Virus record (IMG/VR): IMGVR_UViG_2563366966_000001
Origin: a virus
Lineage: Duplodnaviria > Heunggongvirae > Uroviricota > Caudoviricetes
Length of the DNA stretch: 52,942 nt
Strand: one strand, 5' to 3'
Below, piece after piece: positions 3,309 through 36,341 of the stretch (its first letter is position 1; each line of letters starts with the position of its first letter). Position numbers and translations under genes: made by a program. The notes below the pieces were generated by a model. The model was given only the letters and a program-made list of their open reading frames with translations, was not told the DNA's origin and searched no databases.

Positions 3309-3884
3309 CTACGGCAGTGCTGGCCATTCAATATCCTGTGCAGTTGACGTATCAACACGGTTCAGCAATACCCGATACTTTTTCCATGCTTCCAGCAACG
3401 AGATTTCTTCCTCCGTTGCAATTTCCAGATCTGCAGCATCCTGAAGCGGCGCAATATGCTCACTGGCTACCTGCATCAGGTTGTTTTTTGTTTCTTCCGC
3501 CTCCCGGATCCGGAACAGTTTTTCTGCTTCCGTATCCTTCACCCAGGCTGTGCCGTTCCACTTCTGAAACTCCCCTTCCGGCGATAACCAGGTAACATTT
3601 TCCGGTAACGGACCGAGTTCAGAAATAAATAACGCGTCGCCGGAAGCCACGTCATAAACCGTTTTACCCCGATGATCTTCAACGAGATGCCACGATGACT
3701 CATCACTGTTGAAAACAGCCACGAAGCCAGCCGGAATATCTGGCGGTGCAATATCGGTACTGTTTGCTGGCAGACCTGTATGAGGCGGAATATATGCATC
3801 ACCTTCACCAATAAATTCATTAGTTCCGGCCAGCAGATTATAAATTTTTATGGTCCGTGGTTGTTCACTCATTCTGAATGCCAT
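3309..3884 (-). CDS. tfa: Tail fiber assembly protein Tfa
   Basis: 191-aa ORF highly similar to lambda Tfa as recalled; immediately downstream of stf. Confidence 0.9.
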
Positions 3885-6800
3885 TATGCAAGCCTCACAA
3901 TATAGTTAAATGCGATGTTTTTGACGGTGTTTTCCGCGTTACCAGCAGCGTTAACGGTGATGGTGTGTCCATGTGAACCAATCGCAACGGAGTGCGTATG
4001 AGCACCAATACCGACAGTATGTGCATGTGCGCCTGCGCTTGCAGCAGTGCCGGACAGCGAGTGGGTATGAGCACCATCTGATGATGTCTTCCCTGCATTA
4101 CGAGTCTGGCCACTACCGCTTGTTGTGCTCATAATCCCCGCGCTTAGATTTGAAATCGCGGTATAACCATTAGGGAAAATGCTCGTGTTCGTGCCACCAA
4201 ATGCACCGGAACTCTTGTGTTGGTGCGCACCGGCACTATTTGCGGTCCCGCTAATACTATGGGTATGCGCCCCGGTGTTATTCGTGGATTTGGTTCCGTA
4301 ATCAAACGACGATGTGGTTTTCGTCCCCAAATCCGTACTGGATGCGCTGGCGCTGTGGGTGTGCGATTTAATGCCGTCCTGTTCCTGAGATAATACGGCC
4401 CGACCACTGGCGGGCTTGCCCTTAATCGTCCAGCCACGCATATCAGGGATCACGCCTGACGGATAAGCAACTGCAAGTTTCGGGTATGCAGATTTGTCAA
4501 AAGTCTGCCCCTGCATCAGGGCATAACCAGACGGAACGGTATCTGATGGCCACGGGATTGGTGCACCGACTGGATAAAACTCTGCAGGAGGATGAGCCGA
4601 GGTGTAAAGCTGCGCCCACGGCGACCAGTTTGCGTCGGTCGTATCCCGTCGTGAACGAATAAATGCCGGAGCATGAGCACCGCTTGTACCACTCCAGCCG
4701 ATGAGTAACTCACCTTCGCCAACGGCTGTCATCCCTTTCAGGTGAATGATATTTCCATACGCTGTTGGATATCCGTTGTTATACACCTCGTATAACTCAA
4801 GACCTGCTGCCCCCTGCGTATTGTCTGTCAGCGCGGTTACCCGACCTTTTGAAGCCAGATTAACTGATGATACTGCTGTTCCACCTGACGGTAACGCCCC
4901 GATCTCTGATGCCGTTGGCTTATTTCTGGAGTTATAGTCCCTTCGCCAGCCAGGTGAATAATCTGTTCCGTGATTAATATAGGTAAACTGGGCGTTAGTT
5001 GTTCCACCACCAGTGGAGGTGGTCGGTGTGGTAATGCGGATCGTCATCGCTGACTTTATCCCCATTACTTCAATGACAGCTCCGGCGAGATGAATATTAC
5101 CGCAGTCAGTATCAGTAATGATTTTATTATTGCCATAAGACCAGGAACCCTTGCACATCCAGTATGGATGGTTAAATGCTCCCTGAGAATCCAGCCACTC
5201 GATAAACTGTGCAGTCGTCCAGTTTCCTGTTGTTGTGCTTACTGACCCACCGAAGGCACGGCAGGCACCAATATTTTTCGTAAAGGTATCTTTGCCAGGG
5301 ATATCCGCACCGTTCTGATCTTTCTGCAGACGTTTCTCAGCATTGTCATTGGCTGCTTTTACTGCCTTTGGTGTCGCGGCAAGCGTTTCAGACGTGCTGT
5401 TGGTCGCGCTGCTTAGCTGGATTATCCCTTTCTGTGCTGTCGTTGCATCCTGTGCGGTGTATTTCCCGTTAGCCAGGTCATACGCGGCCTTAACGGCTTT
5501 TGGTGTTGCCGCCAGTGACTCGGAAGTGCTGTTAGTCGCACTACTGAGCTGTACTATCCCCTTTTTCGTCGTGCTCGCATCCTCAAGCGCCACGGCGGAT
5601 GCAATATCCTCTGCCCGTTTTGCTGCTGTCTCGGCGCGCGTTGCTGCGGATTCTGCCGTACTTTTGCTCTGAGCTGCCGCCGTCGCACTGCCAGCAGCCT
5701 CTGTCGCCTTCGTGGATGCCGTCGTGGCGCTGCTCTTCGCTGCTGACGCTTGTCTGGTCGCCTCATCTTTTGAAGCAGACGCCGATGATGCCGATGACGC
5801 CGCCGAACTGGCTGACGATGCGGCAGCCGTTTTTGAGGATTCTGCGCTGGTTTCCGACGCTTTCGCGTTCGTTTCGGATGTCTTCGCTGCGGAAGCAGAC
5901 CTCGCTGCTGCGCTGGCCTGTTCAGTGGCTTCGCCAGCCTTCGTTGTGGCTGTTGAAGCAGACGATGCGGCGCTTTCTGCCGATTTTCCGGCGGCGGTGG
6001 CACTGGCTGAGGCCTGCCCGGCACTTGTTGACGCTGCACTGGCAGACGACGCAGCCGCTGTTTTTGAGCCTGCCGCAGCCGAGGCGCTCTGTCCCGCTGC
6101 CGTTTCAGAAGACCTGGCGTTCGTCTCTGACGTTTTTGCCGCCTTCGCGGAATTTCCTGCCGCTGTTGCCGAGGAAGCTGCGCTACTGGCGCTCGAGGAT
6201 GCGTTCGTTTCTGATGATTTTGCCGCCTCTTTTGAAGCCGACGCATCCCGGGCTGAGGTGGCAGCTTCTGACGCTTTCGTGGTCGCGGTGGATGCAGAAG
6301 TGGCTGCTGATTGTTGTGACGCTGCAGCATTCGTTTCTGACGTTTTCGCGGCACTGGCACTGGTAGCTGCCGCGCTTTTTGAGGACTCTGCAGCGGCAGC
6401 ACTTTTTGATGCTTCAGTGGCCTTTGTTGATGCCGTTCCTGCGCTGGAAGACGCTGACTGAGCCGACGAAGCGGCCTGTCCGGCTGACGTGCTGGCTGCG
6501 CGTGCTGAGCCTGCAGCATCAGTCGCATGGGTTGCCGCCTCACGGGCAGATGTGCCGGCATCGCCGGCTGACTTCTTCGCGGCTGCCGTGTTCTGTGCCA
6601 CCGCGGACGCGTTACGCGCCACCTCTTCCACCATCAGTTCAAAACGGCGCAGAGCCTCCGGACGGGCATCATCCTCCGTCATGGCACCGAGAAAATCATT
6701 CAGCGTACCGGGTCGGGAATCTTCATACACGGTGATGGTCCCGGCATGTGACGGCGGGAATCCTTCCACCAACAGAATAACGCTGTACTGACCGTACTCA

Positions 6801-28091: not shown

Positions 28092-28322
28092 TCAACTCAA
28101 GAGCCTTATTGCTGCTTCCAGAATTTCTTCTGAAGTAACATGTCGATCCGCGGCTACATAAATGACTTTATGATCTCCGGTCAGAGATGGAAACCCTGCG
28201 GCCATTACAGTAAGGTGTGTTTTTTCGCCATTTGGATATTCACGCATGATGGTGTTAACTCCAGTCATCGCTGGCACTACCACTGCTGGTTCAGAGTTAA
28301 AAAAAACTATGATTTTTTTCAT
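28092..28322 (-). CDS. ynfN: Cold-shock-inducible prophage protein YnfN (start uncertain)
   Basis: Track ORF 28092..28364 begins with TTG; ATG at 28322 gives 76 aa (MKKIIVFF...); a 51-aa form from ATG 28247 matches my memory of K-12 YnfN. Confidence 0.6.
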   Translation of the reverse strand: MKKIIVFFNSEPAVVVPAMTGVNTIMREYPNGEKTHLTVMAAGFPSLTGDHKVIYVAADRHVTSEEILEAAIRLLS

Positions 28323-28593
28323 GATGTTACCGTAGTATGTGAGTATCCATCGAATAGACACCAAGCAAAAAAGCTCCCGAAGGAGCCTTCATTTTCACTT
28401 TTTTAAATCCAACGACAGACGGCTGGCATTTAAGTATTGTGAAATATTATCAAATGTAATCATCATTGATTTACAAAAGATACATTTTGCCCCGAAAGGA
28501 TTCATGTCAGAAACATCAAAAGATGATGTTCTATACTGGGAACCATGACAACACGGGCATCTAAAGTGAATATGGTTTGTAATATTGTCTACC

Positions 28594-28806
28594 TCAAAGC
28601 GCCACTACATGAACAGCGGCAGGACCTTTAGGTCCGTTCTCAATACCAAATTCAACTTCCTGATTCTCAGTTAATGTTTTGAAATCGTTGCTCTGAATTG
28701 CTGAGAAATGGACAAACACATCTTTGCTGCCATCTTTCGGCGTGATGAAACCAAAACCTTTTTCAGGGTTAAACCATTTCACTAAACCAGTCATTTTGTT
28801 AGACAT
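28594..28806 (-). CDS. cspI: Cold shock protein CspI (CspA family)
   Basis: 70-aa ORF with RNP1/RNP2 motifs (KGFGFI, VFVHF). Confidence 0.9.
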
Positions 28807-29168
28807 AATTATTACCTTTTGAAGAAATTAGCCCTTGGGCAGAATGGTCCGAAAAAAAATATCAGAGAGAAAAACCAACAAGGAAATCTCAAGAGGTACA
28901 AATAATAAAATTATAACAATGACTGCTTCAGATAAATTTGTAACAAACCAGAACACCATTAACGCATGATTAACCACCCATAGCAAGGATTACTTTTGTA
29001 AAGAAAAACACAGCAATGAAAGAATAGCTTTATTTATTAATAAAACGTGTCATTCTGATTAAGACCTTTTATCTTACCCTTAAGATTTCAGGAATTTTGG
29101 CTCATGGAAGAGTCCTTTTTATTTAAATTTTACATTCCGCGATGTAAATGTTCCGATTTAATATTACC

Positions 29169-30192
<1,024 letters not shown>

Positions 30193-30196
<4 letters not shown>

Positions 30197-30504
30197 AGAT
30201 ATTTATGATGAGGACGCTCGTGCTTATTGGCAGGATTTTCAATCTTAAAGGAGTACTGATGCTGCAGATAAGACTCAACTTTTTCTGACAATTTTTCTGC
30301 TACTTCCAGGAAGACTTGCCGGACGCTCCTTCTGGCTGCTGCCTCATAAAACTCCAGCGCAGCTCCTTCAACACGGTCCATGGCGACATCCAGGTCAAAA
30401 ATTTCACCGTCAAAGCGTTCTTTGTCCTGTAAGGCTACAGTTACCGTAACTTTATTCTCAAAATTACGGACTCCTTTCACAACCAGTTCATAGTCTTGAG
30501 TCAT
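30193..30504 (-). CDS. ydfR: Prophage protein YdfR (DUF1327)
   Basis: 103-aa ORF between holin and endolysin, matching Qin YdfR from memory. Confidence 0.75.
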
Positions 30505-30508
30505 TGGA

Positions 30509-30724
30509 TTACTCTCCTCTCGCAGCCTTACGCCTGTCTTCTTTAATCTTGAAATAAAGATTTGTCAGATACGTCAGCAGGCCAAAAACCAGGCTACCCA
30601 GCACACCGATTGCAGCCCACTGTGACGGAGTTACTTTATCGAGTAACTGCAATGCCCAGAAACCAGCATTACCCGCCGATGTGCCATAGGCAACACCTGT
30701 TGTTAACTTATCCATTGATTTCAT
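30509..30724 (-). CDS. S: Class II holin (phage 21 S-type pinholin) with dual-start motif
   Basis: ATG at 30724 gives 71 aa starting MKSMDKL (two Met codons for antiholin/holin); two TM segments; track ORF extends upstream. Confidence 0.85.
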
Positions 30725-30943
30725 ATCCTCACCCCGATGTACACGGATGGTGCAATATGTTTGAAAAGATCGGAGTCTACGGGGTAGTTTTGACAGCACA
30801 CGTTGTTCTCAACGGCGCTAAAAAAACATACACATTAAAAATGTGGGTAATTATTTTGAAAGAAAGTCATATATAAAATAATAATACGAGAAATGTTTTC
30901 ATATTTAGTGTACTGTATACGGCCATTTATACAGGAAAAGCCT

Positions 30944-31114
30944 ATGTCAGAACGTAAAAACTCAAAATCACGCCGTAATTATCTCGTTAAATGTTCCTGC
31001 CCAAACTGCACCCAAGAGTCAGAACACAGTTTTTCAAGAGTACAAAAAGGTGCCCTTTTGATCTGCCCTCATTGCAACAAAGTATTCCAGACAAATCTTA
31101 AAGCTGTAGCCTGA
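30944..31114 (+). CDS. ynfU: Small zinc-ribbon protein YnfU
   Basis: 56-aa product from ATG 30944 (AGGAAAAG upstream); CxxC...CxxC motif (CSCPNC, CPHC). Confidence 0.7.
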   Translation: MSERKNSKSRRNYLVKCSCPNCTQESEHSFSRVQKGALLICPHCNKVFQTNLKAVA

Positions 31115-31170
31115 TTGATTTTATTAGTAACAAGTATTTTTTATATTTTAATAATATATTTAAAGCAGAT

Positions 31171-31195
31171 AATAAAAAACCCGCCTGAGCGGGTT
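31171..31195 (-). terminator. Rho-independent terminator downstream of cspB
   Basis: Hairpin AACCCGC-CTGA-GCGGGTT at 31178..31195 followed on the minus strand by a T-run. Confidence 0.6.
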
Positions 31196-31477
31196 TGAGA
31201 TTGTGGTGCTTTTTGTGGGAGTCATCCACTTACGCACTTTGTTTTGCCATGCCAGCAGTTAGCTTCTGCTGTAAAACTATTCATGCAGCAAACCTGCACT
31301 TCACCACAATGGTTAGCATACTTTTCCTGATTAAGATTTTGCCAAATATGCTAGCCATTGTTTCATGTATTGGACCTCCTTACTTTTTATTAAAGAGATC
31401 CAATATTCACTACTCTGTCCGTATCTCTACTCAGGCATCAGCCTTCTTCGTTATCGTATACAGACGAGCGATGAATT

Positions 31478-31693
31478 TTAATCAGTAATGATGACATTTG
31501 CTGCTGCAGGACCTTTAGCACCACTCTCTATAGAGAAGGTAACCTTTTGACCTTCAAATAAGGTTCGATAATTATCATTCTGAATCGCAGAAAAATGCAC
31601 AAACACATCTTTACTACCATCAACAGGAGAAATAAAGCCGAAACCTTTATCAGCGTTAAACCATTTTACTAAACCAGTCATTTTATTTGACAT
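31478..31693 (-). CDS. cspB: Cold shock protein CspB (CspA family)
   Basis: 71-aa ORF with RNP motifs. Confidence 0.9.
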
Positions 31694-31993
31694 TCTACAT
31701 TCCTTAACTTGAGCCTTTCGGCATAAATGGTTTGCATAACAGAAACGACTTCGTACTTAATTGGAGAGACTCAAAGAAGGAATAAGTGAATAACACCTGA
31801 AATGAGAACTGCTTTAGTAAACTACTTCGTATATCGTCTGTTCTTCAAACCGACGCAATCATTAACGCATAGTTGAACATATGAAGCAATGTTTATTTTA
31901 GACATCCAGCCATCTTCAACCCCATCAAAAAACTATAGCTTTCTTCAGGAACGTGTGTATAGTGCGCCAAGTTATCAGTATTAAGGAATTTTT

Positions 31994-32206
31994 TTGTCCC
32001 GTAAAATGACAGGAATTGTCAAAACCTTTGACGGCAAAAGCGGCAAGGGTCTTATCACCCCATCCGATGGTCGTATCGATGTCCAGCTTCATGTTTCAGC
32101 GCTCAATCTCCGCGATGCAGAAGAAATTACCACCGGATTACGCGTGGAATTTTGCCGGATAAATGGTCTGCGTGGCCCTTCAGCTGCCAATGTTTACCTT
32201 TCATGA
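31994..32206 (+). CDS. cspF: Cold shock protein family member CspF
   Basis: 70-aa ORF, divergent CspA-family member. Confidence 0.85.
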
Positions 32207-32260
32207 GCTATATTAAAGCTTTAATTTCAGGCCCCATCGGATCACACATGGAGAGTTTTT

Positions 32261-32350
32261 ATGAATAACCCCGTCTGTCTTGATGACTGGTTGATTGGCT
32301 TTAAAAGCTTATGCTGTACTTTGGCCGTAATAGCTCTGCTAATAATATAA
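32261..32350 (+). CDS. Candidate small hydrophobic peptide (29 aa)
   Basis: ATG at 32261 with GGAGAG 6 nt upstream; translation [29 protein letters not shown]. Confidence 0.3.
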
Positions 32351-32496
32351 TAAGCAGACTCATTGTGTTTAGGGACATTGTACTGGAAGAAAACATTTTA
32401 AACATCAGGCAAATAACCAAGTCACCAGCTAAATAATAAGTTAACAGACATGAGTCCCGGGATGAGATTCAACATTACCATTGCCCCATTTAAAGC

Positions 32497-32532
32497 ACAA
32501 AACCCGCTCATCAGCGGGTTTTCTACTTTTTC
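32497..32532. terminator. Hairpin terminator AACCCGCT-CATC-AGCGGGTT (candidate tR-prime for late operon and/or cspF terminator)
   Basis: Perfect 8-bp stem at 32501..32520; T-rich tract on plus strand after the hairpin. Confidence 0.55.
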
Positions 32533-32567
32533 TTAACGTCGGGTATACAAAGCCCATCGTTGAAAAA

Positions 32568-32596
32568 ATTTTATCCATATTTTTTGAAAAATGCAA
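32568..32596 (-). promoter_or_regulatory. Candidate late promoter pR-prime immediately downstream of Q
   Basis: Minus strand TTGCAT-17 bp-TAAAAT located 32..60 nt after the Q stop codon. Confidence 0.5.
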
Positions 32597-32627
32597 ACAT
32601 CATGTCGCCATCTTCAGCAAAAATCAT

Positions 32628-33380
32628 TTATCTCGTCACCTTCCTCAATTGCGCTTCCGCGTATGCTTCTTCCTGCCAGCACTTTGTTACCAGTTTACCA
32701 ATGACGTCCGCATACCCCTTATACCACTGATAATCGGTCAGGTCTGGTACCAGCTTCTGGACATGACGTCGTGCCAGCGTGGTCGGTAAACGACTAAACC
32801 GGTTTCCATTACAACGCCCACAAATCTTATATACCGGTACGCCATGAAACCGGGTTCTTTTTTCATCCAGAACAATCCCTTTACCCTTACACCCTCTGCA
32901 CGCTGTGCTGGCTTCGCCCTTACCATGGCAATGCTGACATAGTTCCTTCACCCATTCTTCCTTGATTACAGATTCCCCGCGTCTGTAGTGTTTCACCACT
33001 TCGCGCAATACATTATAAAATCCCGTACCTGAACAATGCTCACAGCGAGCCTTACTTGCCGCAGACCTGGAGTAATCAGCAAAGGCAAAACTCACGAGGT
33101 AAGGAATAATCTGTAACCGGATTTCTTCACTCAATTTGTTCAATGTCGGGTTATCCAGTGCCATCGCGTAATTTAGCAGGCCTTCAATCGCAAACTGAGG
33201 GTCCTGAACACCAACTTTTGCCAGAAATAAGGCCAACCCAAGTGGTGCTTTCGACTGCACCATCCCCTGCGCTGCCATTACATCCGTAATTGTTAAACAA
33301 CCGGTGCCTGTCGCTGGAGCGTCATCGCTCAATTTTGGAGATTTTGGGGAGTAATATTTTGGTAAGGCTTCAAGGTTCAT
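32628..33380 (-). CDS. Q: Late-gene antitermination protein Q
   Basis: ATG at 33380 gives 250 aa; Cys-rich zinc-binding region (CEHCSGTG...CQHCHGKG...CRGCKGKG); position upstream of lysis cassette. Confidence 0.85.
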   Translation of the reverse strand: MNLEALPKYYSPKSPKLSDDAPATGTGCLTITDVMAAQGMVQSKAPLGLALFLAKVGVQDPQFAIEGLLNYAMALDNPTLNKLSEEIRLQIIPYLVSFAFADYSRSAASKARCEHCSGTGFYNVLREVVKHYRRGESVIKEEWVKELCQHCHGKGEASTACRGCKGKGIVLDEKRTRFHGVPVYKICGRCNGNRFSRLPTTLARRHVQKLVPDLTDYQWYKGYADVIGKLVTKCWQEEAYAEAQLRKVTR

Positions 33381-33393
33381 GCTCGTTCTCCAC

Positions 33394-34443
33394 TTACGCC
33401 AGTACGCCAATTGTCAGCGCGCGATCGATAAAACGAAATATCAGCTCCAGTTGGGAGCCATACTTATCTTCAAATGCCACTGTATCCGTATGCAGCTCGT
33501 TGTGATGCTTTCTGCACAAAGGCAACACAAAGAGATCATGTGCTTTTGTTCCCATTCCGCCCTGCCCGTGACCAATCAGATGATGCGGATCGTCGGCTGG
33601 CATACCGCAGCAAGCACACGGCTGTGTCTTAACCCAACGTGTGTATTTCTCCTTAACCCAGCGGCGACGTTTAGGCAGCTTCATGAAAGATTCCGGAGAC
33701 TCTGGATCAACGGTGATGCTTACCACCGTCTTTTCCTGTGGTGATTTTTGTTGCTGGTGGGCGTAAGGCAACGGTGCAAGATTTTTTGTGCGTTGTTTCA
33801 ATATGCTGGTGGCGGTCTGCTCTCCCGGTACGATGTCGCTTTCGCGGTACACCGAGCAGATTTTTTCCGCTGGTAATCCCAGCGAACGACGCGATACAGC
33901 CTCAGGTAGTGCATCCACCACCTGATTGCAGACCGCCCACCAGGATAATTCAGCCAAAGATAATTCCCGCTCCTGCGTACCGCTTATTGCGTGACGGATG
34001 ACGTCAATCACCCATGCTGTCAGATTTTGTTGAGCAAGCAGCTCCAGTGATTCCGATGTCTGGTCACGCAGTTGGTTGTCGCAGTGCCAGCACAACACCA
34101 TTGCGCCGGTACCATAACGGTGAATGACTGTTTCAGTGTGATGGTAATCGCCATTAGGCCACTGGCAGGATGTAACATGACGTAATAGCCAGTCGGACAA
34201 TGCGCCAACGCCGCCAGCAGCACGAATCACCCGTTCGTTACTAAAAAACGGCAGCAATGTTTTGTCTTCCGCCAGCGGCTGGCGAACGGCAGGAACGACT
34301 CCGGATGGCAGATTACGCATGCTTTTTGGTTCCGGTTCCACCAGCACTCGAGGATTATGAAATATCTGTATGGATTCACGGCCCGGCTTAAGGACCACCA
34401 GCCCAAGCTCAGGCACCAGAACAGGTCTAAGTAATACCCGCAC
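33394..34443 (-). CDS. ydfU: DUF968-family protein YdfU with C-terminal HNH-like Cys/His motif
   Basis: Track ORF 33394..34482; GTG at 34443 lies 1 nt after the rem stop and gives 349 aa; motif CACCGMPADDPHHLIGHG...CRKHHNELH. Confidence 0.7.
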   Translation of the reverse strand: MRVLLRPVLVPELGLVVLKPGRESIQIFHNPRVLVEPEPKSMRNLPSGVVPAVRQPLAEDKTLLPFFSNERVIRAAGGVGALSDWLLRHVTSCQWPNGDYHHTETVIHRYGTGAMVLCWHCDNQLRDQTSESLELLAQQNLTAWVIDVIRHAISGTQERELSLAELSWWAVCNQVVDALPEAVSRRSLGLPAEKICSVYRESDIVPGEQTATSILKQRTKNLAPLPYAHQQQKSPQEKTVVSITVDPESPESFMKLPKRRRWVKEKYTRWVKTQPCACCGMPADDPHHLIGHGQGGMGTKAHDLFVLPLCRKHHNELHTDTVAFEDKYGSQLELIFRFIDRALTIGVLA

Positions 34444-34444
34444 G

Positions 34445-34723
34445 TTACCTCCAGATCCGTTGCTGGAAAGTGCGGGACGCACGTGGTGGGCGTTCGGAAT
34501 AAGGCAGCCTGACAGAGATTATCCAGTGCCGATAGTCGAGACTGAGAGCTTTCTTAACCTCGAACCCGCGCCTGCGGTAAGAATGAATCAGCCATTCGGC
34601 CTGTTCTGCAGTGCATGGAGGGTGCTGGAACCATTCAGACTTGAATGCGTGAGAATACCGCCCGTGCGTGCAGGCAAGAACGGGCGAATTATCAGAATTG
34701 TAATATTTTGCGTTGCGTGCCAT
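34445..34723 (-). CDS. rem: Prophage protein Rem
   Basis: 92-aa ORF matching Qin Rem from memory; start codon not resolved. Confidence 0.7.
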   Translation of the reverse strand: MARNAKYYNSDNSPVLACTHGRYSHAFKSEWFQHPPCTAEQAEWLIHSYRRRGFEVKKALSLDYRHWIISVRLPYSERPPRASRTFQQRIWR

Positions 34724-34789
34724 CGGTTTTCTCCGGTGGCACGGTGTTACTCAGCGGGAGTTCAGCCCCGCGCAAGATTGTAGATGAGT

Positions 34790-35041
34790 TTATTCTCCTG
34801 AAAAAGCAGAAAAGCCAGCTTTTATTCCGATCTCTTTCAATGCCTGTAATGAAGTGACAAACTCACCTTCGCGCAAGATAAATCCGTCCGTGACCCGAGC
34901 ATCCACAAAATTAATTAACGCAGCCCCATTCTTTCGCAAACACATAATGCGGTAATGACTAACAAGATTTCCATTTTCAACGCACACAGCATAGAGGCCA
35001 TCTTCACAAAAAATTTTACGCAGTTCTTCGATGTTCATCAT
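34790..35041 (-). CDS. Hypothetical protein (83 aa), unknown function
   Basis: ORF with tandem ATG start, GGAAGGA 7 nt upstream, and a minus-strand TTGAAG-18-TAGAAT promoter-like element at 35120..35149. Confidence 0.6.
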   Translation of the reverse strand: MMNIEELRKIFCEDGLYAVCVENGNLVSHYRIMCLRKNGAALINFVDARVTDGFILREGEFVTSLQALKEIGIKAGFSAFSGE

Positions 35042-35160
35042 CAGAATCCTTCCGGATAATTAGCTCTCCCCTTTAAGGGACCATCCCTCTTATCCCTGCG
35101 CGCTACTTAAGTATTTTTGATTCTATTCCGGCACCGTCCAGAACTTCAAACGCGTTGAAA

Positions 35161-35189
35161 ATAAAAACAAAAACCCGCCGAAGCGGGTT
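35161..35189 (-). terminator. Rho-independent terminator downstream of hokD
   Basis: Hairpin AACCCGC-CGAA-GCGGGTT at 35172..35189 followed on the minus strand by a T-run. Confidence 0.65.
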
Positions 35190-35257
35190 AAGTGCGGGTG
35201 CGTTGAGGATGCCTGCCACATCAGAGGTGGCGAGGGATTTCTCCCCCGCCGGGTCTC

Positions 35258-35413
35258 TTACTCCTCAGGTTCGTAAGCTGTGAAGACAGCGACCTCCGTC
35301 TGGCCGGTTCGGATTCGTACCTCGCAGAGGTCTTTCCTCGTTACCAGTGCCGTCACTATGACGGTTAAACAGATGACGATCAGGGCGATTAACATCGCCT
35401 TTTGCTGCTTCAT
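35258..35413 (-). CDS. hokD: Hok-family membrane toxin HokD (RelF)
   Basis: 51-aa ORF not in track; translation MKQQKAMLIALIVICLTVIVTALVTRKDLCEVRIRTGQTEVAVFTAYEPEE; immediately downstream of relE. Confidence 0.9.
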   Translation of the reverse strand: MKQQKAMLIALIVICLTVIVTALVTRKDLCEVRIRTGQTEVAVFTAYEPEE

Positions 35414-35484
35414 AGCCTGCTTCTCCTGTCAACGCAAAGCAGAAGTGTCACCTTCGGTGCGAAACAGAGATGTCATGCTTTGGT

Positions 35485-35772
35485 TCAGAGAATGCGTTTG
35501 ACCGCCTCGCTATATACTTCCGAGCGTTCTCTTTTCCCAACAGAAATCACGAAAACGACAACTTTCTCGTCTATAACCTGGTATACAAGGCGATAGCCTG
35601 AAGACCGGAGCTTAATCTTGTAACAATCAGGCATACCACGGAGCTTGTTTGCTTCAATCCGGGGTGACTCAAGTACTTCAACCAGCTTCTTTTTCAACTG
35701 TTCACGTACCGTCGAGCCCAGCTTTCGCCATTCCTTTAGTGCCCGCTCGTCAAAATCCAGAAAATACGCCAT
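35485..35772 (-). CDS. relE: mRNA interferase toxin RelE
   Basis: 95-aa ORF matching RelE. Confidence 0.95.
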   Translation of the reverse strand: MAYFLDFDERALKEWRKLGSTVREQLKKKLVEVLESPRIEANKLRGMPDCYKIKLRSSGYRLVYQVIDEKVVVFVISVGKRERSEVYSEAVKRIL

Positions 35773-36011
35773 CAGAGTTCATCCAGCGTCACACGTACTG
35801 GCTTAGGATTACGAAGCCGTTCTTTCACTATCTCCACAAGTTCAGCATCTTCATCACTCAGGAGTGTCTGTTTGAACGGCAAGCGTTCATTGTCAGCGAT
35901 ATACTCGAGCATGAGACGAAGCGCTTCAGAAGGAGTTACACCCATTTTTTCAAGCGCGGCGTAAGAACGCGCTTTAAGTTCATCGTCAATACGCAGGTTA
36001 ATGCTACCCAT
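35772..36011 (-). CDS. relB: Antitoxin RelB (RHH)
   Basis: 79-aa ORF matching RelB; overlaps relE start. Confidence 0.95.
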   Translation of the reverse strand: MGSINLRIDDELKARSYAALEKMGVTPSEALRLMLEYIADNERLPFKQTLLSDEDAELVEIVKERLRNPKPVRVTLDEL

Positions 36012-36035
36012 GTCTTACACCTCTTGTAATTACAA

Positions 36036-36341
36036 ATGTCATTACAAGTATCGCACTACAACATGCTTAGGGCAAGTCACGAAGGAAGTCAGAAAGTAGT
36101 CGTAAGAACGGTGATCACTGTCCGCTTTGTGCCAGGAGCAGCCATTGCTAAGTCCATCCTGTATTGTGCAGGTCAGCTCGTTTTTAAAGAGTCCGGCCAT
36201 CATCTTACTGGTACAGACACCATATACTTTGTGACGGTCAGGCTACATATGCACAACTCAACTTATTCATCTATTTTTTGCTTTAGCATGTCAGTGTTGC
36301 TTTCTCGTCGGCGGGTGAGCGGTGACCTGACCTGTCGATAA
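36036..36341 (+). CDS. ydfV: Hypothetical protein YdfV-like
   Basis: 101-aa ORF at the position and size of K-12 ydfV; no independent support for coding. Confidence 0.4.
   Translation: MSLQVSHYNMLRASHEGSQKVVVRTVITVRFVPGAAIAKSILYCAGQLVFKESGHHLTGTDTIYFVTVRLHMHNSTYSSIFCFSMSVLLSRRRVSGDLTCR

Follow-up and report, generated by a model that had tools for sequence, protein, structure and literature searches.

The 29-codon open reading frame (ORF) considered here is ynfS (b4750), a genuine protein-coding gene of Qin-type lambdoid prophages, and cross-genus sequence comparison indicates that purifying selection acts on the encoded peptide in prophages of both Escherichia and Citrobacter. The ORF lies within a 52,942-nucleotide stretch of viral DNA (IMG/VR record IMGVR_UViG_2563366966_000001; Caudoviricetes), the whole of which is referred to as the window. 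Reading of the sequence, together with the ORF list, places the ATG start codon at position 32261 and the TAA stop codon at positions 32348 to 32350. The features of the surrounding region are as follows.

30944 to 31114, + strand: ynfU, encoding a small zinc-ribbon protein (annotation; Pfam PF23499, NCBIfam NF038384), the outer gene of the cassette
31478 to 31693, - strand: cspB (annotation), with a cspA-type 5' UTR thermoregulator extending to 31854
31955 to 31965, + strand: invariant block GTGTATAGTGC with a -10-like TATAGT (31958 to 31963), a candidate cspF-ynfS promoter element
31994 to 32206, + strand: cspF (annotation), separated from ynfS by a 54-nt spacer
32250 to 32255, + strand: Shine-Dalgarno sequence GGAGAG of ynfS, 5 nt before the ATG (TTTTT spacer)
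32261 to 32350, + strand: ynfS (b4750), 29 codons plus TAA (ORF list, reference identity, Pfam PF23697)
32499 to 32522, bidirectional: intrinsic terminator hairpin with a 10-bp stem and a 4-nt loop, followed by a T-run (terminator scan)
32628 to 33380, - strand: quuQ/ydfT, encoding a Q antiterminator (PF03589; annotation; Pfam Antiterm E = 3.6e-54), convergent with ynfS

Identity and published translation of ynfS

The translation of the ORF is 100% identical over all 29 amino acids to that of ynfS (b4750, YP_009518791.1) at positions 1642122 to 1642211 of NC_000913.3, where the gene is located within the cryptic prophage Qin and is flanked by cspF and ydfT. Positions 28300 to 33413 of the window, representing 5.1 kb around ynfS, match NC_000913.3 base for base, and a wider comparison of 8 kb with MG1655 returned 99.96% identity (2 mismatches and 1 gap). 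The ORF and K-12 ynfS are the same gene, their sequence, their flanks, and their place between cspF and ydfT/quuQ being identical. The sole Pfam match of the peptide is to PF23697 ("YnfS"), a profile of 29 positions which was founded on YnfS itself, with a score of 80.9 bits (cutoff of 27; E = 4.7e-23) and with residues 1 to 29 aligned to profile positions 1 to 29. No YnfS family was present in PHROGs or NCBIfam, and PADLOC returned no match.

The feature is, therefore, already known, being a named reference gene with a Pfam family and published translation evidence, and the preliminary description of the ORF as unannotated was mistaken in view of its entry in NC_000913.3, the PGAP calls elsewhere in E. 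coli, and the Pfam family. Many E. coli genomes match the 411 bases surrounding the ORF at 100% identity, and in these the PGAP label is "hypothetical protein," a designation which differs from that of K-12, as does the RefSeq record of phage 2H10, in which ynfS is not annotated. Phage records such as that of 2H10 thus miss the gene. In the record of phage HannyBb, tiny antisense ORFs are annotated across ynfS in place of ynfS itself. Two ORFs of the window that overlap ynfS, at positions 32301 to 32420 on the - strand (antisense) and 32311 to 32436 on the + strand, were considered and rejected, as homologs have stops within the corresponding frames.

Evidence for the translation of ynfS was obtained in published work by the very approaches, ribosome profiling and epitope tagging, that had been suggested as checks in the preliminary description, with positive outcomes for both (PMC6001520; 10.1101/511675). 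VanOrsdel 2018 (PMC6001520) included ynfS, listed with a sequence identical to the present one, in a set of 36 small proteins revealed by chromosomal SPA tagging and immunoblotting, and the gene was also positive in a tetracycline ribosome-profiling screen (PMC6001520); the reference annotation has carried ynfS since the 2018 tagging study. Weaver 2019 (bioRxiv 10.1101/511675) described "strong start peaks" at ynfS with retapamulin and Onc112, the tagged protein being scarcer than these initiation peaks would suggest (10.1101/511675). Both tagged YnfS and the initiation peaks were seen in uninduced MG1655 during ordinary growth in LB (PMC6001520; 10.1101/511675), and a tiling-array study detected a ynfS transcript, which was grouped with fluoride-down-regulated genes. 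The initial reading, that the ORF is a real gene whose translation yields a small hydrophobic peptide, is thus corroborated by the published SPA-tag and start-peak data. A 2024 survey (PMC11551758) still places ynfS among the uncharacterized genes of Qin, the gene belonging to the y-ome together with many other validated small proteins of E. coli; no experiment on the membrane localization, topology, partner, or phenotype of YnfS was found in the accessible literature, and no report on YnfS overexpression toxicity was found in the searchable literature.

A length of 29 codons could by itself arise by chance, the 4 kb around ynfS containing 74 ORFs of at least 20 amino acids according to the ORF list. 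The case for ynfS stands above chance because of its ribosome-binding site (RBS), its cross-genus purifying selection, and the published translation evidence. The ATG at position 32261, its GGAGAG RBS, and the 29 codons are present as first described, and the RBS proved to be invariant across genera.

Conservation of the peptide between and within genera

The deep sample comprised loci encoding CspF relatives, with one genome per species. The Citrobacter homologs were located via CspF and not via YnfS, and the sample is therefore unbiased with regard to YnfS. Four Citrobacter species were found to harbor a 29-codon ORF at 62 to 65 nt after the CspF-type gene, whose products share 52 to 59% amino acid identity with YnfS (that of C. 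braakii being MYQKIYLNDWLTGLKSSCCTLIVTLLVFI) and score 31 to 37 bits against the Pfam YnfS profile, in every case past the cutoff of 27. Nei-Gojobori dN/dS ratios of 0.12 to 0.26 were obtained in comparisons between the genera as well as inside Citrobacter, synonymous sites being close to saturated, and the synonymous excess was significant in each comparison (Fisher p = 0.001 to 0.03). Among the six frames, that of ynfS alone is stop-free in all six sequences.

Conservation in the nucleotide alignment runs from the RBS to the stop codon, the DNA 3' of the stop codon not being alignable between genera; upstream, GGAGAG is invariant in the E. coli and Citrobacter copies, and the remainder of the cspF-ynfS spacer is variable. 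Conservation of the reading frame in related prophages, which had been put forward as a further check, was thus confirmed, the 29 codons being kept in Citrobacter. The residues that are invariant in YnfS are M1, L7, D9, W10, L11, G13, K15, S16, C18, T20, and L26.

A second scan, in which a Citrobacter-tuned degenerate DNA pattern was applied to metagenomes and viral contigs, returned 43 matches, all but one of which (42/43) are 29-codon members of the family with a GGAGAG RBS. A CspF-type gene is located directly upstream in each of the 39 matches with sufficient upstream DNA (39/39). No YnfS-like ORF or remnant was detected after the chromosomal cspH of E. coli, the closest cspF paralog, or after the CspF/CspH-type genes of Salmonella, Klebsiella, Enterobacter, E. 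albertii, and C. sedlakii. A suspected tRNA-like 3' fragment following the C. braakii copy was rejected, ARAGORN having made no call.

Within E. coli, the full region is present in 1,406 of the 5,426 complete genomes, always at a nucleotide identity of at least 90%, and the 90-nt ORF is kept in the divergent alleles; a search with the 41-amino-acid read-through translation retrieved E. coli variants only, all labeled "hypothetical protein," and added no more distant members to the family. Start and stop codons are retained in 119 of 120 E. coli-type loci from IMG/VR. Such E. coli-only conservation is too shallow to inform on selection: the alleles number only eight at the DNA level, diverge by at most 4% in the ORF, and belong to a sample in which the search pattern itself forced the conservation of residues 7 to 15. 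The nine variable sites comprise eight non-synonymous changes and one synonymous change, in addition to one start loss (ATG to ATA), which is consistent with neutrality given a neutral expectation of approximately 74% non-synonymous changes. Rare frameshift and indel variants also exist. Approximately 216 of the 5,426 genomes yielded a partial match, confined to the final 44 bases of the query, and the one such genome inspected, ATCC 25922, carries a deletion of the 3' end of cspF and the whole of ynfS. Because of these partial-match and deletion alleles, it is apparent that ynfS is dispensable, and constraint on the gene may be relaxed within E. coli.

The probable cspF-ynfS transcription unit and its cassette

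The position of ynfS between cspF and a strong hairpin terminator, noted in the preliminary description, was upheld, and a location shortly after a CspF-type gene and ahead of a strong hairpin is a constant feature of the gene. On the basis of sequence, cspF and ynfS are probably co-transcribed; both genes are intact in 112 of 114 loci, and in the other two cspF contains an internal stop and ynfS is intact. The 11-nt block GTGTATAGTGC constitutes the sole invariant island in the variable DNA upstream of cspF when E. coli and three Citrobacter species are compared. A simple consensus promoter scan called no + strand promoter at this block, which, by virtue of its invariance and its -10-like hexamer, is a plausible promoter element of cspF-ynfS.

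The hairpin at the other end of the unit is predicted to fold stably whichever strand is transcribed, at -16.3 kcal/mol (+) and -23.9 kcal/mol (-). Among alleles that are approximately 90% identical, its stem is invariant, the loop and flanks being variable. It would end the cspF-ynfS transcript on the + strand, the ynfS ORF terminating 150 nt before it and the intervening 3' UTR, from stop codon to terminator, not being conserved. On the - strand, it is predicted to represent the Q-proximal, tR'-like late terminator, a role suggested by its position downstream of Q. In the arrangement that we propose, ynfS would be the second gene of a short transcript which starts near the -10-like element (approximately position 31958) and ends at the hairpin.

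Together with ynfU and cspB, these two genes form a cassette, ynfU(+)-cspB(-)-cspF(+)-ynfS(+), which is inserted between Q and the holin-endolysin-spanin lysis genes. The cspB leader was recognized as Rfam RF01766 at positions 31462 to 31854 on the - strand (158.8 bits), and the corresponding place in C. braakii is taken by a ynfU homolog. The genes quuQ, essQ, rrrQ, and rzpQ are all on the - strand, so that cspF and ynfS, on the + strand, face against Q-dependent late transcription. An identical cassette layout is found in the classified phage 2H10, and phages HannyBb, PhiR42_1, and PhiR63_1 likewise encode YnfS. The Citrobacter prophages again harbor the CspF-type gene and the ynfS homolog between Q and the lysis genes. 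The phage functions on either side are of other types: the Citrobacter Q is a 137-amino-acid PF06530 protein, unrelated to the PF03589 Q of E. coli, and the Citrobacter holin is a 92-amino-acid protein of the HP1 type (PF16080), that of E. coli being a P21-type class II holin (PF04971). As the cassette is associated with different Q and holin types, it follows that it moves between phage backbones, a mobility which is moron-like behavior.

Phage morons are cassettes which are expressed in the lysogen and are located between phage modules, as exemplified by bor and lom of lambda. The ynfS cassette shares with these elements a location between modules (in this case between Q/pR'-tR' and the lysis cassette), an orientation against the late operon, a terminator of its own, a variable presence among related prophages, and an occurrence in several phage backbones. 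It differs from them in being a four-gene unit rather than a single gene and in having a promoter that is only inferred. Two of the properties by which morons are recognized were observed. Insertion between phage modules with variable presence is apparent from the Qin-type, 2H10, and Citrobacter contexts and from the deletion in ATCC 25922-type alleles, and expression from an uninduced prophage is apparent from the literature in the form of protein, initiation peaks, and the tiling-array transcript. In keeping with this moron-type character, expression of the cassette would belong to the lysogenic state and not to lytic development.

Properties and possible roles of the YnfS peptide

The best 19-residue window of YnfS, residues 10 to 28, has a Wimley-White octanol value of -8.25 kcal/mol and is predicted to partition into the membrane. 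The corresponding reference values for TisB and ShoB are -5.4 and -6.9 kcal/mol, respectively, YnfS falling between TisB/ShoB and AcrZ, and the Citrobacter variants are less hydrophobic (-2.8 to -6.9 kcal/mol). The strictly hydrophobic run comprises 13 residues (17 to 29) and ends at the C terminus, and a membrane-spanning helix would have to include K15 and S16. Positive charges are found solely on the N-terminal side, in the form of K15 and, in some variants, K3 or K4. Because of this distribution, and in line with the positive-inside rule, an N-in tail-anchored helix is predicted. The paired cysteines to which attention was originally drawn are present in this sequence, and as a feature of the family they were not sustained: C18 alone is invariant, C19 being replaced by Ser in one Citrobacter lineage and C6 by Tyr in all Citrobacter copies. 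Geometric reasoning on an ideal helix suggests that the N-proximal half carries the invariant residues mostly along a single face. The C-terminal half is variable in sequence yet always hydrophobic, and the residue pattern fits that of a membrane anchor combined with a specific interaction surface.

With somewhat more confidence than doubt, we propose that ynfS encodes a moron-borne small membrane protein which is co-transcribed with cspF, is expressed in the lysogen, and acts by binding a membrane protein. YnfS would insert as a tail-anchored single helix of approximately residues 10 to 29, with its short polar N terminus and K15 directed toward the cytoplasm and with almost nothing exposed on the far side of the membrane. 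Residues D9, W10, G13, K15, S16, C18, and T20 would cluster on one face of this helix, the C-terminal half being required merely to be hydrophobic. The likeliest action would be helix-helix binding to another membrane protein of host or phage, which is favored because of the invariant face and of a C-terminal half needing only hydrophobicity; pore formation and holin control are considered less likely than such binding.

Small single-pass inner-membrane regulators of E. coli include AcrZ, MgrB, and MgtS. YnfS resembles these in being shorter than 50 amino acids, in possessing one predicted hydrophobic helix, and in having been found by the same tagging and ribosome-profiling approaches, and the conserved polar or small residues on one face of its helix are compatible with helix-helix binding as in AcrZ, MgrB, and MgtS. 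In contrast, it shares no sequence similarity with them, it is prophage borne and restricted to Escherichia and Citrobacter prophages, and its hydrophobic segment is C-terminal, with nothing beyond, and is less hydrophobic than that of AcrZ or MgrB.

Alternative explanations concern, on the one hand, whether the peptide matters at all in the present host. According to one of these, ynfS was functional in ancestral phages and is now drifting neutrally in Qin, a defective prophage, and in its relatives within E. coli, translation of the gene being inconsequential. This functionless reading within E. coli is a serious rival because of the neutral-looking polymorphism (eight non-synonymous changes to one synonymous, with the start loss, matching the neutral expectation) and the deletion alleles that would remove ynfS in approximately 216 genomes; the rare frameshift and indel variants, the scarcity of tagged protein relative to its initiation peaks, and the lack of a known phenotype point in the same direction. 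We nevertheless regard it as unlikely, given the low dN/dS both across genera and within Citrobacter, the fixed length and RBS, the intact gene in the sequenced phages 2H10, HannyBb, PhiR42_1, and PhiR63_1, and the retention of start and stop codons in all but one of the sampled E. coli-type loci, the divergence within E. coli being, moreover, too shallow for relaxation to be demonstrated. It might also be supposed that the act of translating ynfS is what matters, and not its product, through stabilization of the cspF mRNA 3' end, termination, or antisense collision. The location of ynfS toward the 3' end of what would be the cspF transcript, a short distance before the terminator, and the low product abundance despite strong initiation would accord with such a role. 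However, amino acids are conserved where synonymous sites are saturated and the number of codons is fixed, which argues for selection on the peptide itself; as conservation is also lacking in the 3' UTR that leads up to the terminator, this explanation appears highly improbable.

The remaining alternatives accept a membrane peptide and assign to it one of the two functions suggested in the preliminary description, toxicity or the timing of lysis, neither of which found support. A peptide acting in the manner of the type I toxins TisB (29 amino acids), ShoB (26 amino acids), Ibs, and Hok would depolarize or permeabilize the inner membrane when its expression rises. YnfS resembles these toxins in its length and hydrophobic free energy, its 29 amino acids and predicted energetics being within the TisB/ShoB range and those of a small hydrophobic peptide, and it is prophage encoded, a genuine Hok toxin (hokD) as well as relBE being present in the same prophage. 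A weak antisense promoter-like match (9/12), at positions 32371 to 32342, overlaps the 3' end of ynfS. The region of this match is, however, not alignable between genera, and there is consequently no conserved antitoxin element; no cognate antisense RNA or sRNA antitoxin was detected, an Rfam search of positions 29000 to 36000 having returned only the cspA leader and two sub-threshold matches elsewhere, with no sRNA family, and PADLOC having no match. Furthermore, the initiation peaks are strong in LB and the product of the chromosomally tagged gene is detectable there, in contrast to the tight repression of type I toxins in unstressed cells, and the RBS of ynfS is open, its mean unpaired probability of approximately 0.5 being no lower than that of the surrounding RNA, so that it is not sequestered in the predicted structure. 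A type I toxin gene, moreover, stands alone behind a long structured leader, whereas ynfS is the second gene after cspF, and the conserved polar and small residues of YnfS would appear to differ from a generic amphipathic pore pattern. Toxicity of this kind is, in our assessment, distinctly unlikely. Still less probable is an antiholin-like modulator which binds the holin in the membrane and tunes the lysis trigger, for which the encoding of a predicted membrane peptide between Q and the holin-endolysin-spanin cassette, and its presence in viable lambdoid phages, could be cited. As ynfS is carried on the strand opposite that of the late operon and converges on the Q-dependent transcript, late transcription should oppose its expression. 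Moreover, cspF, cspB, and ynfU intervene between ynfS and the holin gene, which is approximately 1.5 kb away; translation of ynfS takes place in a defective prophage without induction; and YnfS matches no holin family. Neither co-orientation with the late operon nor co-variation with the holin was observed, the module accompanying two holin families as well as unrelated Q proteins, a pattern that weighs against a partnership specific to the holin.

The comparative results, which are new to this study, comprise the cross-genus purifying selection, the fixed 29-codon length, the conserved polar helix face, the strict linkage to CspF-type genes, and the mobility of the cassette between phage backbones with different Q and holin types. 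They narrow the range of hypotheses, disfavoring lysis control and type I toxicity and favoring a membrane modulator expressed in the lysogen, and render ynfS a better-justified functional target than the typical prophage small ORF. A more specific form of the membrane-binding proposal, which we advance tentatively as possible though doubtful, is that CspF and YnfS constitute a conserved two-gene cargo expressed in the lysogen, in which YnfS binds a host inner-membrane protein and thereby confers a selectable phenotype on the lysogen. If this were true, the cargo phenotype could be one such as tolerance of envelope or cold stress or the exclusion of other phages, and the face formed by D9, W10, G13, K15, S16, C18, and T20 would represent the interaction surface.

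Small ORFs adjoining csp paralogs are also represented by YnfR, YnfQ/YmcF, and YmcE (ynfQ, ymcF, and ymcE in the K-12 reference), which share this arrangement with YnfS and are not homologous to it. Cold-shock induction has not been reported for YnfS; YnfR, which was identified in the same tagging study, is cold-shock induced (VanOrsdel 2018, PMC6001520).

Apparent mobility of the ynfS cassette between phage backbones

The cassette that harbors ynfS was compared with its counterparts in Citrobacter-type prophage contigs (L189, L177, L163 and L200) and in Citrobacter braakii ATCC 51113 (L135), across the following region:

30944-32522 of the window: cassette region, from ynfU to the terminator

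As in E. coli, the interval between Q and the lysis genes of the Citrobacter prophages houses a CspF-type gene together with a ynfS homolog, the complete ynfU-cspB-cspF-ynfS order having been confirmed within Citrobacter in C. braakii L135 only. The Q proteins of the Citrobacter prophages (PF06530, 137 aa) and of E. coli (PF03589, 250 aa) belong to unrelated families, and the former encode an HP1-type holin versus the P21-type holin of the latter. Because the Q and holin types of the Citrobacter prophages differ while the position of the CspF-type gene and ynfS homolog is retained, the cassette appears to be mobile between phage backbones.

In C. braakii, the sequence located past the ynfS homolog and its hairpin (L135, approximately 2560-2640) resembles a tRNA gene 3′ end lying on the opposite strand (...GGTACCCGGAGTGGGACTTGAACCC...); no tRNA was called by ARAGORN for this stretch, which may represent the remnant of an att site. 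The surroundings of this locus, with a 178-aa ORF upstream and a 395-aa ORF downstream, seem unlike phage DNA.

Natural alleles of cspF and ynfS

A natural deletion allele, equivalent to approximately 32196-32454 of the window, is present in E. coli ATCC 25922, from which the 3′ end of cspF, the whole of ynfS and approximately 100 nt beyond have been removed, while the terminator is retained and the truncated cspF carries a pseudogene annotation. A partial match of this kind was obtained for approximately 216 of 5,426 complete E. coli genomes, the deletion itself having been read in one of these, ATCC 25922. In two further E. coli loci, cspF contains an internal stop and ynfS is intact. The ynfS homolog of Citrobacter meridianamericanus (L155, minus strand, approximately 907-1400) is likewise intact, and its neighboring cspF-type gene appears to be reduced to its 3′ half, since the sequence upstream fails to align; ynfS may therefore persist in this locus without an intact cspF.

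Second Q-proximal region beyond the terminator

Phage HannyBb shares with approximately 40 E. coli genomes a distinct arrangement after the terminator, as represented by the following regions:

4100-6060 of L008 (phage HannyBb): region after the terminator
1227-2778 of L204 (E. coli 95-3322): region after the terminator

Here, a 58-nt remnant of the 3′ end of a Q gene is followed by approximately 1.55 kb of AT-rich DNA (37% GC), in which a single ORF, of 61 aa, is annotated and which yielded neither an Rfam match nor a tRNA. The Q-proximal region then occurs again, this time with a Q allele that is 89% identical. This arrangement looks like a scar of phage-phage recombination.

Sequence context and annotation

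Alignment of window positions 28138-36139 with E. coli K-12 MG1655 (NC_000913.3, 1638000-1646000) revealed two mismatches and one gap in these 8 kb, none of them within 28300-33413; the window is not an exact copy of MG1655. With regard to phage records, ynfS was left unannotated at 3501-3587 in the RefSeq entry of phage 2H10 (NC_049950.1), and in HannyBb the automatic annotation covers the region around 4001-4087 not with ynfS but with many tiny ORFs of 30-45 aa, most of which run antisense to it.

The cspA thermoregulator (RF01766, 158.8 bits) was strongly matched at window positions 31462-31854 on the minus strand, spanning the 5′ untranslated region and entire coding region of cspB, and this neighbor of ynfS in the cassette therefore carries the classic cold-shock mRNA leader. 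Elsewhere in the window, immediately downstream of the prophage hokD gene, a full-length but subthreshold match to isrK, an Hfq-binding sRNA described from Salmonella prophages, was recorded at 35168-35249 on the minus strand (E = 0.029; 25.1 bits, with the gathering score set at 50).
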